DNA from: Eledone cirrhosa
Lineage: Eukaryota
Assembly (NCBI GenBank): GCA_964016885.1
Contig: OZ024740.1
Location: 338,272,001-338,336,000 of the forward strand
Length of the DNA: 64,000 bases
Direction: 5' to 3'
Part shown: in pieces, positions 1,430-62,994 of the stretch
Position numbering within the stretch: position 1 is the stretch's first letter
Layout of the letters: the number at the start of each line of letters is the position of its first letter
Notes under the pieces: generated by a model
What the model saw: only the letters and a program-made list of their open reading frames with translations
What the model was told of the DNA's origin: nothing
Database searches by the model: none
Position numbers and translations under genes: made by a program

Positions 1430-1850
1430 TATGAGGGTTTCTTGTAAACAGACATTCGTCTCATTCTGACGTCATTAGCCATGTTCTCCATGTGTCTTTA
1501 TTTTCATAATTCCACACGAGGTGTTCTAGCGTGCTTTTAAATTCCCTTTTTGGCATATTTTAGCAGTGATTTTGGTTATCATGTTTGAGCTCTACTGATG
1601 AATGACTCCAACCGTGACTAACCCCACTAAAAAGTTTCGTGAAATAGTCTTTTTAAGACTATATAGAGCATTTGTAGTTTTTCCAAATTGAAGGATAAGT
1701 ATTTAACCTTAATTTTATTCTGAATTGAGACTCTATTGTTTTTTTTCCCTGGATTTCACAAAATCTGTGGATAAAATTTCTGTCTAGACTTTTTTTTTAA
1801 TTGAGTTTGAATTATTTTCCCATATCTTACGTAAAATATTTTCCATCTTG
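1430..1850 (+). mobile_element. Probable PLE pseudo-LTR fragment carrying a hammerhead motif
   Basis: Non-coding, ends in a (TA)n tract and contains the HHR at 1589-1669. PLE assignment is by analogy. Confidence 0.5.
1589..1669 (+). ncRNA. Type I hammerhead ribozyme motif
   Basis: GCTCTA CTGATGA ATGA..TCGT GAAA TAGTCTT-ttt-AAGACTA TA TAGAGC: canonical core with stems I, II and III all pairable. Confidence 0.8.
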
Positions 1851-1854
1851 ACGT

Positions 1855-2055
1855 TATATATATATATATATATATATATATATATATATATATATATATA
1901 TATATATATATATATATATATACACATACATATATATATATATATATATATATATATATATATATATATATATATATATATATATATATATATATATATA
2001 TATATATACATATATATATATATATATATATATATATATATATATATATATATAT
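1855..2055. repeat. (TA)n microsatellite
   Basis: Direct reading. Confidence 0.98.
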
Positions 2056-2540
2056 CGAATAAGTCTGGCTATTTTTAAATTTTTCTCTCTCTATATCTCT
2101 CTATATCTCTCTATATATCTCCCTTACATTAATACTTGAGCTAAATAAATAAATAAATAAATAAATAAATAAATAAATGCATCATTGATACACTTACTCA
2201 AAATGACCTCCCACTACCTAATTTTTCTATATCTATATTTATATATGTATCTATCTCTATTTCCTCTCTCTCTCTATATATATATATCCCTTTCGGTCTC
2301 TTTACATGAAGCTCTTCGCTTTATCTATTTTTCCATCTCTCTATTTTGTCCCATGCATTTCTTCTTTTTCTTCTTTTTCTTCCTTTTCTTCGTTTTGTCT
2401 TTCTTTCTTTCTTATTTCCCTCTTTTCTCTCTCTTTTTCTTTCTCTCTGTATTTTCACTGCTAGAGTGAACCTCTTCAAATGAAGTTGATGTTTATTACG
2501 GTATGTCGAATATATTTATCTATAAAACTGTTTATATTGT

Positions 2541-57954: not shown

Positions 57955-58130
57955 ACCAGAAAAAAGAGGAGATACAGAAAAGAAGAATAAATAGTCATTG
58001 AGGAAGTCATAGAATGTGTGACAAAAGAGCTTTGACAAAATAATCAATATCTAATAATTTTAAAGTTGAAGTGAAAATCAGATAGTGTGTGTGTTTTATT
58101 GGCAAAATGTCCAGCCCCAAATATAGCAGA
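57955..58130 (+). mobile_element. Old PLE pLTR relic with decayed hammerhead (57994-58036)
   Basis: GTCA TTGAGGA aGTCATA..TGTGAC AAAA GAGC TT TGAC aligns to 27353-27395. Confidence 0.7.
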
Positions 58131-61100
58131 ATACAATTAATATGACCAAATAGAATATATACAAGCAGGGCATGGCTTTCTGCCCTGCCTAAGAAAGAAA
58201 TAACTCTAAATAAGAACTAATTTGAACCATGATAACCTATCCAACCTATGTCAACATAGAAAGTGGATGTAATGATGATGATGAAATGTTACAAATAAAT
58301 GAGCTAGTGAAAGGACAAATGGCTGAACCCATACCCTTTACAAGCTCTGAGGATACCTATGTGGAATCTATTTCATGGTGACTCTAATGTTTGATGTGGT
58401 GCCTACTTACAGCCAGGTGGACTGGATTATTGAGAATTAAATGGTTTAAGAATGGACTCAGCAGAGTTTAATTGACAATGTTTTAACCATGAACTTAGCA
58501 GAGTTCAGTTGACAGAATATGAACCTGTGACTTCATAACTTTCTACACTCCCAATGTAATTAAGTGGCAAGCAATATAAGATCACATGGTAAAAGTTACA
58601 GAACAAACGTTTCATTAAGTTTGTTATGCAGTTTTTACTGTCAGTTAAACACTATTTCACTTCAGTTAAGCTTCTAAAATACCTTGATAAATGAATGGTG
58701 GTGGCTACACCATTTCTCTTCTAAACGATGTTTTCTGTCTAGTTTAAAAAAGAAAAACAATAAAATAGTATTAATAACAGGTTTTATTACTAGCTTAACA
58801 TGATCATTAATTAATAGCTGTCAAATAGAGAAATTTACTTTACTCCTTGTTTTTTTATTTGTTTGTTACATGTAACAAATTTTAAAATTACGGCCTTGTC
58901 AGTTTTGTTTCTTAACAAAATCTATATATTAGGTTGCTAACATCTTTTATGAATGCTGAGTAATCTCAACTACAAGCCAACATTTCATTCTGCTATTTTT
59001 CCTCCAGTTACTAACAAAATCTCCAACCGTATGAAAAAAGACTATCGGTCAATATTAGGCTAAAGAATTATAGCAAAAAGTTAACAGAAATTATAGATTG
59101 TCAGATTAAATGTTCTTCTTTGGTCAATATACATCAGACACACAATCTTTCAAAGTTAATAATGGCTGGGGGTCACTGCTCATAGCAGGAATACAATAGT
59201 AGTTAAAGTTTATACCATGGTCTGCCTTTAAATTGCAAGCAGCATGAGTTACTTGCACAAACAAGCCTATGAGTATTACTCAATTAAATTAACCACAATA
59301 TTTACTTTTATTATAATGATCTCAGATTGATGAAAAATGAAATTGATCTCGATGGAATATTGAACTCAAAACATAAAAGGTTGAAACAAGTATAGCCAAA
59401 CACTCAAACAATTCTGTTAAATCCTCAGGCAGGTTAAATGACATGCACTAATGAATGTAAATCTGCTTTGATACCTTTGGATAACGAATTTCAGTAATTT
59501 CCTGAGGTTGATCCTATTTATTATACACTGTATTTTGTGGAATGGTGTGTTCATTATTTCTAACAATGCAGGAGCATCATTATTCCTAAATAGTCAATAC
59601 CTGTAACCACACCTTACCTCTATGTGGGTAGTAATTGATAGTTAAGATAAGATGATGATGATAATCCTAACCAGGACTAATTTAGGCTTCCTTGGGTGGA
59701 CCTTGAACTTATCAAGGGGATTTTTTCTTTTCCAAGAGTCAGAAGAAAAGGAATGCCAGTATATCTGAAGGGAACCAAGTGTAGAGGTTGCCAAGAGAGT
59801 TAACAATACAAGACTCAAATGCCTTAATGAAATTCTACTCTATTTGTAGATTTGATCAATGATGTTTGACATTTCATTGAGTTTATCTACTCTTGTAGAG
59901 AGATATTGATTTTTTTTTGTATTGTCAGGGCATTCACCCACTTTCCACCCATGATGGTCGAACCCAAGAGTGACATTATTAGCTTAATCCCTGATGACCC
60001 AACCATGAAACAGGAAGTACTGGTTTGCACCAAATCATTTGATCTGACCTGAAAGATATTGTATAAAATATAACCTGCATTGTATAAACTTTGTAAGATA
60101 ACAATTTTCTCTCATCAAGAGAAAAGAGTTTTAAATTTAAAGCAAGGCATTTAAAAAAAAATGTTCTTCTTTGATATTATTTGAAGAGATTTACTGCACT
60201 AATCGTTGAAATTCCCCTCTTCTCACAGCAAACCCATATATATCTTAGGCTACACACAGTTTCATTCATCATTGATTCTATTACTACCACAAGGATATCT
60301 CCTGCTCTTCTGGACTATCTAGTTTTATACAACCTCCACTCAGGTCTTACAGACTCATTTGTTTCTCCTTCATATTATGTCTCACTCTACCAGGCCCTCG
60401 CTAACTACTTTTTTCTCCTTGGAGTCCATTACTTCTTTGCCAGAATATCAACCACTCCGAGAGCCTGCTGAAGTCATGAGTATTGTCCTTTCTTCTTTAC
60501 TAAGACATAAAAGTCAATAGTTTCTTTGGATTCTAATCTTTTTCATTGCTGTATAACATTTAGCTTGGTATGTAGTGAAAAGAAATCTTTATTCATGTTG
60601 AAGAACAATTCAATCCTACATAGAAGATAGCTTATACAAAATATCAGAAAGTATCTCTGATCATAATGTTTCCAATCTTATTATCTGTAATTGTTAACTT
60701 CTATACAAAATATTTCAAGGATGAATATAGTTTTACGATTTTTTTCTTAGTAAGCTGCAAGCTGTCTTATATATTTATGTCTACTGGTTTACATATTCAC
60801 CTACACACAGAAGTCAACGTACATAAATGTCCATTATAGCTATGCCATTATTACTTACTAACACATATAAAGTTTATGTGTTGTTCTGTCACATCAGTGA
60901 CAACAATAGGACACAACATTTACCAAATATTCTAATCTTATCTCAGAGATAATCTTGTAGTTCTAGTGGTGATTTGGCAAAATTGTTAGATCATAGGATA
61001 AAATGCTGTGCAGTATTGGTTCCGACTCTCTATGCTCTAAGTTCAAATTCTCCTTAGTTCAATTTTGCCTTTTGTCTTTCACTCTTTCAGTGTCCATAAA

Positions 61101-62994
61101 ATAAAGTACCAGTCCAGGGCGATAGATTAGCAGAATTGTAAGAGCATTGGATGTGATGTTTTGTAGTACATGAGTGAAGATAGAAATAATAAAAGATTTA
61201 AGCAAACAAATCAGTGAAGTTGTAATTAAATAAAGAGAAAGGAGAAAAATAATGGTTAATGGGGATAAGAAAAAGAGACCAGCTTGCACCTAGAATTTAT
61301 TCAACTCCATGCTGATGATGCATCCATGCTGAAATGCTTTCATATATTTTTCTTTGACTTTAATACTTCATTGTTGCAACAGAAACAAATTTTTAAATTA
61401 TTATGATCTTAAAACCTTATATTGTGATAATTAGTAGATTGTAACAGTAAAATCGCTTTGAACCAATCACATTTGTGCTTTTTGAAAGAGAAGACCATCA
61501 GCCCACATGAAATCAGTTAATTGTTTGTAATAGAATGAAAAGTCCCCTATCAGATTCTTTGTCTATCAAAAATACAAAAAAATGCAATGATCAAATGTAT
61601 ATATTTTGTCCTGCCTTAAAAAAATGTACACAAATGTGAATGAAGTGTAGTCACAAATTGAAATGATCTAGATGGAAAATGAATGAAGATTTACATAAAC
61701 ATTTCAGTGGCTGAATTATTTGGCCAATGATAGTAAAACTTACATTCATAAATGTCCTTATTTACAAACATACACTCCACACATACATTGGTGCAGACAT
61801 AGATCAGCACAATCATTTAGAGATAAAGAACCATATTAAAAAAAAACAGATTGTCACAGTCAGTTACATTTAAAATGACCACCCACCTTAGTAACAGATA
61901 GAGCAGCACCACGGTCAATTAAAGATAGACCACTATAGAAATAAGGTGAGAGTGGACCATTAAATAAATTAACGACCAGTGAAAACTTCTGGTAATTAGT
62001 GTCGGCTTATTCAAATCTTTGTGATTGTTTAACGAAAACTGATTGAAATTGAATTAAAAATCTGTTCACAAAAACTTAAAATATCTTCACTAAGAGAATG
62101 AGGGGAAAAAATAAATAAGAAATAAAAAAAAATTCTGGTAAAAAAAACCCTGTTTGATATAAGAAGAAAAAAAAAAACGAAAAGAAAAAATACAGGAACA
62201 ATTCTTAGAAATCAATTAAGTTGAAGCAAAATCAAACTCAAATAATTTGAATGAAAAAAAGTCTATAAAGTTAATTAAAAAGTTAATCCAAAAATCAATA
62301 GCTAATCTTATGTTTCTCCTGTCTTTTATGATTGCTTTTTTTTGTTTGTTGTGGGTGGTGGTAAAAGAAGCAATGAAACATTGGGTACTCCCACCTCTAT
62401 TTCCCTCATTGCCAAACACCCACATTATACAGACTAAAGAATCAGTTGTAATTTCAGCTTATTTCATCACATGTCACATGTGTGTTGGTTTCAAAAAACG
62501 ACCTCACCTTTCTTTGTACTCCAATGTCTCTTCAGCAGTCTAGTTTATTTCTCTGTCTCTGCCTATCTTTCTCACTGTCACACTCTTTCTCTCAGCTATT
62601 CTCTCTTTCAGTCTATATAGCAATAAATACCAACAATAATATTGAGTTCTAATTTATTCAAGCAATTTCAGAGGAATAGGAAAGAACCCCAGCATATTAC
62701 TGGTACTACATTTTATCGATCCTGGGAGGCAAAGTTGACCTTGGTGGAATTTGAACTCAGAATGTAAAGAGGCAGAACAAAAACCTCAAGATATACTCTT
62801 TCTTTTTTTCTTTCTTGTCCCTATATTTCTTCTCCTAGGTTTAATAAACTTAATCTTAATAAATCTTAATAAATAATAATATAACAACTGAGATGAATTC
62901 AAAAACATTTCAAAAAGTAAAAAGTGAAGTAAATATAAATAAATAAATGAATAAGTAAATAAGTATTTATGTTCTCACTCCCTCCGTCTCTCTC

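Follow-up and report, generated by a model that had tools for sequence, protein, structure and literature searches.

The clustering of hammerhead ribozymes (HHRs) beside (TA)n microsatellites in one stretch of the Eledone cirrhosa genome raises the question of which elements brought them there, and by what route. The stretch (GenBank assembly GCA_964016885.1, contig OZ024740.1, positions 338,272,001–338,336,000; 64,000 nucleotides (nt), 35% GC) was analysed at its full length and is referred to here as the window. An original prediction, made from the sequence alone, held that autonomous Penelope-like elements (PLEs) and non-autonomous ribozyme RNAs form a community sharing one microsatellite-targeting pathway, with PLE machinery resident in the window as the helper. 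The underlying observation is real and correctly described; the one-pathway, resident-helper reading is overstated. The window is probably a (TA)n-rich stretch that has gathered independent insertions, in which most hammerheads are the ribozymes of the pseudo-long terminal repeats (pLTRs) of endonuclease-bearing (EN+) PLEs from at least two clades, and in which one family, D, and probably a second, E, are retrozymes copied in trans with a helper elsewhere.

A strict type I hammerhead descriptor (CUGANGA, stem II, GAAA, stem III, UH, stem I) has 19 matches in the window, 17 of which score at least 10 (cores 1595, 2548, 11635, 25368, 25669, 26294 and eleven in the arrays). Dinucleotide shuffling, with 200 shuffles at each block size of 500, 2000 and 64,000, yields means of 0.17, 0.19 and 0.23 matches and a maximum of 2, with at most one of that score, and thus no comparable density. 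About 19 canonical cores had been predicted: 17 of the 19 strict matches were on that list, and its remaining entries, 26699 and 27353, are detected when stem III is relaxed (cores 26735 and 27357). Exceptions to the palindromic stem III and UA cleavage site ascribed to most motifs are 1589, with a true 7-bp stem III instead of a short palindrome, 26699, with a broken palindrome, and 27353, with a non-palindromic loop and UU at the cleavage site. The inserts in stem III are 6 nt long in families B, B2 and C and 4 nt long in D, E, F and G.

Altered cores were sought in the same way. Allowing one core change adds 3236, 41337 and 51576; as this excess over shuffled sequence is small (3 against a mean of 0.7 in 40 shuffles), these three rest on homology to intact copies. 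The U3-A8 core with CCGG has two exact matches against 0.02 expected, and three against 0.16 with one GAAA change (100 shuffles each), and the U3·G8 core has three matches against 0.02 in shuffles. Cores with G3-C8, A3-U8 or C3-A8, and likewise non-pairing or other swapped cores, have no match in the window. Some 11 variant motifs were found where about 10 had been expected, including 35691, 41337, 51576, the second arm of the hairpin at 11853–12148 and the core-less copy at 24916–25018. Strict cores, relaxed cores and homology together give about 30 motifs in about nine families, all within the first 51.7 kb. Since pairwise comparison of 14 regions revealed clear links only between C and C2 and between G and G2, with B and C2 alike at the ribozyme alone, the number of sequence contexts is about nine, close to the eight proposed. 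The 17 strong matches and the variants possess the type I core with stems I, II and III in type I order, and are predicted on this basis to self-cleave. Two candidates were left out of the counts: 42017 is weak and has its second half inside a GIY-YIG coding frame, and 61312 is weak, with a stem I of only 3 bp and a folding z-score of +1.1. An Rfam scan gave no hammerhead family among the matches listed (150 of 208), which are microsatellite-driven and below the gathering score.

The insertions share a niche. (TA)n runs of at least 12 nt make up 6.5% of the window, and such a run lies within 310 nt 3′ of the core in 15 of 16 insertion events, compared with 8 of 16 on the 5′ side. Each array and each hairpin was counted once, hairpin H was entered by the arm that ends in (TA)n, and E and F at 26.2–27.6 kb may be a single event; the 310-nt cut-off was picked after the distances had been seen, and the count at 300 nt is 14 of 16. 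When the motifs are relocated at random within 1.5, 3 or 6 kb, 5.4, 4.4 and 4.1 events satisfy the same rule and none of 5000 trials reaches 15, so that the proposed 3′ termination in (TA)n holds beyond the local abundance of these runs. Among CTGANGA control words that are not hammerheads, 4 of 27 pass. A separate count over 20 motifs places (TA)n within 300 nt of 17, against a background of 0.16–0.22. By an end-adjacency score, 22 of 24 HHR or PLE ends pass, several of the single-copy HHR ends having been delimited within this analysis itself, compared with 9 of 15 (GAT)n tails of long interspersed nuclear elements (LINEs) that we take to be RTE-type. Upstream sequence is TA-rich at five of eight 5′ ends of these LINEs. 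(TA)n is therefore a shared landing zone, used also by unrelated RTE-type elements, and adjacency to it cannot by itself identify the enzyme.

The origin of the hammerheads is read most directly where they are joined to PLE coding sequence. Two types of PLE GIY-YIG relic had been predicted, and both a Hydra-clade and a Neptune-like type are present, each joined to an HHR. The Hydra-clade relic and the related hammerhead families are as follows.

42944–45700, minus strand: near-full-length, dead Hydra-clade PLE with reverse transcriptase (RT) and C-terminal GIY-YIG endonuclease, RWR, CxCx5C linker, CxxC, CxH and three frame changes; 3′ (TA)n.
34258–35893, plus strand: long copy of family C, with a Hydra-type GIY-YIG C-terminus (34279–34416), about 1.25 kb of 3′ non-coding sequence and an HHR at 35691; (TA)n at both ends.
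11536–11745, minus strand: short copy of family C, HHR core 11635 (TATATA), 85.9% identical over 213 nt; it stops about 100 nt before the end of the long copy, at (TA)n.
3141–3302, minus strand: family C2, a related HHR with a U3·G8 core (3236); 3′ end at (TA)n.

Translations of the near-full-length element contain RWR, CNCx5C, CRLC and CNH and no CCHH, which together with the RT and C-terminal GIY-YIG arrangement is the motif set of the Hydra clade, and these motifs are conserved in 14 relatives. The DKT position falls in a frameshifted region, with SDKY at the expected place, and stops as well as the three frame changes break the reading frame. The best named relatives of the RT are from Argonauta hians (42–43% identity). 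A long Asn/Thr/His-rich insert (43755–44310, minus strand) between RT and endonuclease resembles the N-rich inserts of rotifer Penelope elements. The endonuclease end in the long copy of C (tblastn E-value 3.6e-6; Hydra hidden Markov model (HMM) E-value 9.8e-6), absent from the original prediction, is followed by the pLTR hammerhead characteristic of the clade, unlike the element at 42944–45700. For comparison, 78 Hydra-clade loci were collected from metagenomes, 60 of them with at least 150 nt past the open reading frame (ORF). A type I HHR lies 77–494 nt past the ORF in 42 of the 60, all with 6–8 nt inside stem III; stem II often has U·U at its base, and the U3-A8 core occurs in one (L018). 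Families B, B2 and C share the 6-nt stem III build with these hammerheads. Assignment to the Naiad clade, which is marked by an N-terminal endonuclease and the lack of a canonical HHR, was rejected: all three endonuclease remnants in the window are C-terminal.

The second relic type, family F, adjoins family E.

26807–27605, plus strand: family F, with a Neptune-like C-terminal GIY-YIG (26810–27151; Pfam PF01541, E-value 4.4e-5) and pLTR HHR 27357; 3′ (TA)n.
41097–41990, minus strand: second copy of F, 80% alike, with GIY-YIG at 41638–41979 and HHR core variant 41337; same 3′ end at (TA)n.
51506–51667, plus strand: older pLTR piece related to F; its HHR (51576) has lost G12, and just five TA units follow.
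25069–25424, minus strand: family E monomer, HHR core 25368 (CTAG); (TA)n at both ends.
26219–26806, minus strand: partial dimer of E with a period of about 441 nt, HHR cores 26735 and 26294 and 3′ (TA)n; 5′ end head-to-head with F.

Both copies of F comprise a GIY-YIG domain with CCHH, as in Neptune-type elements, followed by a hammerhead-bearing pLTR with one common 3′ end, and lack an RT. A HMMER search found relatives in which the endonuclease is C-terminal, with a CX2-5CxxC linker in four of the seven viewed out of 150 listed; the linker region is cut off in both F copies. A word-based search for longer relatives of the endonuclease had returned none. From these motifs, F appears Neptune-like, or possibly of the Nematis type; only the endonuclease and pLTR remain and the RT is gone. 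The two copies are cut at 5′ positions within a few bases of each other (26810 and 41979), just before the GIY-YIG core, despite being only 80% alike, possibly reflecting a non-autonomous sub-family or a preferred stop site. Further F-related 3′ pieces lie at 55427–55496, 8239–8305 and 58063–58125, two of which stop at (TA)n some 61 nt short of the F terminus, as tail-less ends would. The E tandem comprises 1.3 units with two HHRs, and a partial-tandem pLTR would look alike. At 26806/26807 the E dimer (minus strand) meets F (plus strand) head-to-head with both outer ends in (TA)n, an arrangement that fits one reaction copying two RNAs; the same-family inversions of D, G and G2 likewise lack a TA spacer. 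An apparent similarity of E to sequence upstream of F at 41097–41990 was dismissed (score 45, shuffle mean 36, maximum 62).

Family D forms retrozyme-like arrays.

9424–11184, minus strand: D array 1, 5.3 units of 311 nt with five HHRs (CGCG); full-tail 3′ end at (TA)n.
22867–24315, minus strand: D array 2, 4.7 identical units of 310 nt with five HHRs; same full-tail 3′ end at (TA)n.
24315–24902, plus strand: inverted, 5′-truncated D pieces (unit 180–344 and 174–596) with one HHR (24733), running into (TA)n.

The D unit is non-coding, 310 nt long and 35% GC, and its HHR is closed by a 16-bp helix (folding z-score −4.3). As in retrozymes, whose tandem units measure 150–450 bp, each unit carries a type I HHR, and its GC is under the 45–50% limit. 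No significant PLE HMM or tblastn match to the unit was found. All units of array 1 have a 1-nt insertion in stem I, and one has a single substitution; identity in the arrays is 99.7–100%. Each array is thus uniform for its own variant, and the two have different flanks and an identical 3′ end. The inverted pieces, present at one of the two arrays, stand head-to-head with array 2; they stop at an internal AT tract without the final 24 nt (unit 287–310), which constitute a one-sided tail. Array 1 has a stuttered 5′ end at unit positions 172, 174 and 177, and array 2 breaks at 102; five of the six 5′ breakpoints fall at 172–180, beside the 3′ foot (175) of the helix (160–175), the sixth is that at 102, and none is at the cleavage site (147). 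(TA)n, which would mask a target-site duplication, flanks both sides of the arrays. The one-sided tail and inverted 5′ pieces support a PLE-type footprint, as judged from sequence, and because five ribozymes in a row were crossed without a break, D would have been copied from a circle or an uncleaved multimer.

The D unit recurs in six sequencing runs (four organism labels, four studies) at 0.90–1.00 of its words, and contigs were examined in four of the six, including those designated X1, X2 and X3. X1 and X2 each contain one 340-nt self-joining D contig, which was set aside as evidence of circular RNA because a tandem array and a circle fit alike. X3 contains 634 D contigs with very many near-identical variants. 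Among its loose ends (8 of 36 listed), (TA)n at the tail-less D site is best supported, in 10 contigs, and one contig has (TA)n at 23170, read as a full-tail end. In X1 and X3, some contigs match only the D tail region (23189–23224); beyond it they share one unrelated sequence, which may be a sister family or a partner and was not found in the window. The exact D hammerhead has no match in JGI metagenomes, and no RNA run is among the listed runs with the D unit.

The remaining hammerheads occur on short stumps and hairpins.

1472–1854 (left boundary approximate), plus strand: family A, single fragment with HHR 1589–1669 and a 7-bp stem III; ends at (TA)n.
2056–2645, plus strand: family B, pyrimidine-rich leader and HHR 2540–2605 with a 6-nt stem III insert; 3′ (TA)n.
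24916–25018, plus strand: second copy of B, 5′-truncated within the HHR with the core lost; same 3′ end at (TA)n, 94.6% identical over 93 nt.
25481–25967, minus strand: family B2, HHR 25607–25677 (TGCGCA).
8687–9046, both strands: family G, a hairpin insertion whose two arms stand head-to-head and both carry a U3-A8 HHR (CCGG); both ends in (TA)n.
11853–12148, both strands: family G2 hairpin insertion, related HHR with GAAA changed; both ends in (TA)n.
3349–3924, both strands: family H inverted pair, arms 3349–3515 and 3758–3924 (98% alike) with U3·G8 cores 3462 and 3811.

Stem I of B2 is that of Hydra-clade HHRs in metagenome loci L040, L041 and L060. Hairpin G has an extension of about 60–65 nt on one end only; in H the left end is at (TA)n and the right end is not, and nested repeats separate the arms. 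Hairpins G, with its one-sided extension, G2 and H repeat the inverted pattern of D. Families A, B, G and H are most simply 5′-truncated pLTR stumps. With the 6-nt stem III build in B, B2 and C and the 4-nt build in D, E, F and G, the orphan families look like stumps of more than one clade. Within the supposed community of non-autonomous RNAs, tandem organisation is confined to D and E, and C and F are the 3′ ends of coding PLEs. Linking each family to a PLE within the window thus succeeded for C (Hydra clade) and F (Neptune-like) and left A, B, D, E, G and H unlinked.

A mechanism that would account for these insertions begins with a GIY-YIG endonuclease that nicks (TA)n and so primes reverse transcription, which would start at one of two nearby sites in the RNA 3′ region. 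Reverse transcription would usually stall early or at helices, leaving short hammerhead-bearing stumps, and would often restart on the other strand, giving an inverted second piece or a hairpin. D, and probably E, would be non-LTR retrozymes whose RNA, a circle or a multimer left uncleaved, served in trans as template for such an enzyme, with an active PLE elsewhere in the genome as the helper rather than the local relics, which are far older than the D arrays. The part of the original prediction that assigned the role to resident machinery is not supported: the Hydra-clade relic is broken, the Neptune-like pieces are endonuclease-only and 80% alike while D units are 99.7–100% identical, no sequence link between the D arrays and a PLE of the window was found, and the window contains no intact helper. 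A more specific version, which we regard as tentative and on balance doubtful, is that a PLE acting in trans made D by rolling around a 310-nt RNA circle during reverse transcription, and that E and F were joined in a single PLE reaction, a retrozyme RNA being copied from one nicked strand and the element's own RNA from the other. If true, it would name the Neptune-like protein as the helper and, with RNA, target and start sites all defined, open the movement of animal retrozymes to experiment.

Several observations weigh against independent PLE insertions with trans-copied retrozymes. In the window, families A, B, G and H are linked to no ORF, no PLE with the 3′ end of D or E was found there, and the 3′ end of the PLE at 42944–45700, a decayed copy, has no HHR recognisable to strict or relaxed descriptors. 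Eight of ten folded regions, D and C being the exceptions, fold no better than shuffles as monomers. (TA)5 or longer lies within 300 nt of the HHR in only 10 of 32 assessable Hydra-clade metagenome loci, in short-read contigs that break at such runs. The six D 5′ breakpoints stem from only two insertions; ends at internal AT tracts could result from later deletion between the internal tract and the flanking (TA)n; and the few AT-rich bases at the E/F joint, a single case, could be a remnant of target between two separate insertions. The RT start sites described for a Poseidon element are not homologous to the cut DNA (PMC11167929), and several ends in the window lie at short AT matches.

The alternative closest to the original prediction, a single community of autonomous PLEs and non-autonomous RNAs that uses one (TA)n pathway and locally encoded helpers, would explain the common 3′ niche, the head-to-head E and F pair with both outer ends in (TA)n and the 4-nt stem III inserts shared by D, E, F and G. 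It is unlikely given that two PLE clades with different hammerhead builds contribute, that the local relics are dead and old, and that RTE-type elements occupy the same niche at both tails and 5′ ends; two PLE types of a rotifer, moreover, are described without cross-mobilisation (PMC3846280). The use of the niche by RTE tails and by several ends of unrelated HHR-free repeats, together with the share of the window taken up by (TA)n runs, is what would be expected if (TA)n were a passive sink, in which all classes survive or accumulate, or if the repeats grew later at element ends, PLE targeting adding little. The pass rate of HHR and PLE ends above that of RTE tails, the excess of 3′ over 5′ adjacency and the published (TA)n preference of Hydra and Naiad (PMC8557442) leave this explanation a small chance of being correct.

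For D alone, a pLTR could have given rise on one occasion to a satellite that then multiplied at the DNA level and is no longer retrotransposed, a route proposed in bioRxiv 10.64898/2026.07.22.740005. The many near-identical variants in X3 are in keeping with it, and the uniformity of the arrays also fits local amplification. Two short arrays with different flanks and one exact 3′ end are not what it predicts, and a polymorphic tail, inverted pieces and breaks at the foot of a helix are marks of reverse transcription; we consider a satellite origin very improbable. Under the favoured reading of independent PLE insertions with trans-copied retrozymes, the window pattern is what PLE biology would be expected to produce where microsatellites abound in a genome, and many stumps with hammerheads will go unnoticed in repeat libraries. 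D, a young and abundant family whose target is known, whose two 3′ ends are fixed and whose junctions are inverted, offers a concrete substrate for testing PLE-driven mobilisation.

The elements used as controls and other repeats complete the window. The longest RTE-type copy is

30947–33221, minus strand: RTE-type LINE with (GAT)n tail; 5′ end directly at (TA)n, tail near (TA)n; no HHR and no GIY-YIG.

A copy at 37167–38669, 97% identical to it, matches Pfam RVT_1 and PHD. LINEs of RTE type that have a PHD-like domain and end in (GAT)n (29101–33221, 37168–38949, 47844–49445 and others), and shorter elements that share this tail, lie very often in (TA)n; no literature on RTE targeting of TA microsatellites was found. 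The HHR-free J family (7292–7704 and 38977–39390, 96.6% identical; related sequence at 46002–46408 and in an inverted pair at 27763–27921) has a conserved hairpin end that often touches (TA)n. By eye, one of its frames could be the end of an endonuclease with CxC; the family was not accepted as a third type of PLE, having no Pfam, atlas or homologue match. A Pif1 helicase 2B-domain remnant (53778–54746, plus strand; Pfam E-value 1.2e-14) is probably a Helitron relic, and a zf-RVT remnant (55573–56743, minus strand; Pfam E-value 1.1e-6), with a related piece at 28232–28459, is probably from an L1/Tx1-type LINE. Old two-copy tandem repeats of 93 and 118 nt (55155–55331 and 46409–46632) have no HHR match.

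Published work covers pLTR hammerheads, the targeting of (TA)n, inverted copies and tails, and the derivation of retrozymes from PLEs as non-autonomous elements, and the core inference of the original prediction is already contained in bioRxiv 10.64898/2026.07.22.740005, PMC7229834 and PMC8557442; the D footprint is a modest, testable addition to what is mostly known PLE biology. The available text of an Octopus vulgaris repeat annotation reports recently active Penelope and RTE families and does not use the word ‘ribozyme’. A search that most subscription papers lay outside found no publication dealing with retrozymes of cephalopods, nor any that reports tails and inversions where retrozymes have inserted.

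Metazoan PLE pLTR hammerheads (Cervera and De la Peña 2014, PMC4209133) are described, like those of the window, as type I with a palindromic stem III suited to dimers, mostly single on truncated copies, with opposite-strand pairs 100–700 bp apart and a U3-A8 variant, the latter in Schistosoma PLEs. Unlike that set, the window packs about nine families into 64 kb, several with long stem II inserts. The Hydra clade (Craig et al. 2021, PMC8557442), almost all families of which are reported to insert into (TA)n and carry HHRs, shares with the window relics an RWK-like motif, CxCx5C, CxxC and CxH, no CCHH and an HHR past the ORF; unlike that clade's elements, both window copies are dead and one lacks a recognisable HHR. 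The ORF-to-HHR gap of 1.25 kb in family C is unusually long beside the range in its 42 relatives. The Neptune (or Nematis) clade resembles F in its C-terminal GIY-YIG with CCHH, pLTR HHR and microsatellite bias, the last given for Neptune alongside the (TA)n bias of Hydra and Naiad (PMC8557442), and in the CX2-5CxxC linker, to the extent of the relatives viewed.

Metazoan non-LTR retrozymes (Cervera and de la Peña 2020, PMC7229834; Li, Clavereau and Pollet 2026) are, like D, non-coding tandem units with one type I HHR each. They coexist with PLEs, as D does, and PLEs are proposed as their likely movers (PMC7229834), a case argued further in bioRxiv 10.64898/2026.07.22.740005; in their available text both sources argue from co-occurrence and pLTR similarity, and for retrozyme insertions neither mentions a tail, inverted 5′ pieces or (TA)n as the target. 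Tails and inverted copies are given as marks of PLE insertion (PMC8557442; PMC3846280), the tail being the stretch between two RT start sites (PMC11167929). The inverted pLTR and tail structures of PLEs (Arkhipova et al. 2013, PMC3846280; Frangieh et al. 2024, PMC11167929) match the window in their head-to-head copies and one-sided 3′ extension, and action in trans on pLTR-bearing RNAs is a further likeness. Tails are 24 and about 60–65 nt in the window, compared with the 30–40 nt described for PLEs, and, unlike in those systems, the pattern here appears on a non-coding tandem array and, possibly, between the unrelated RNAs E and F.

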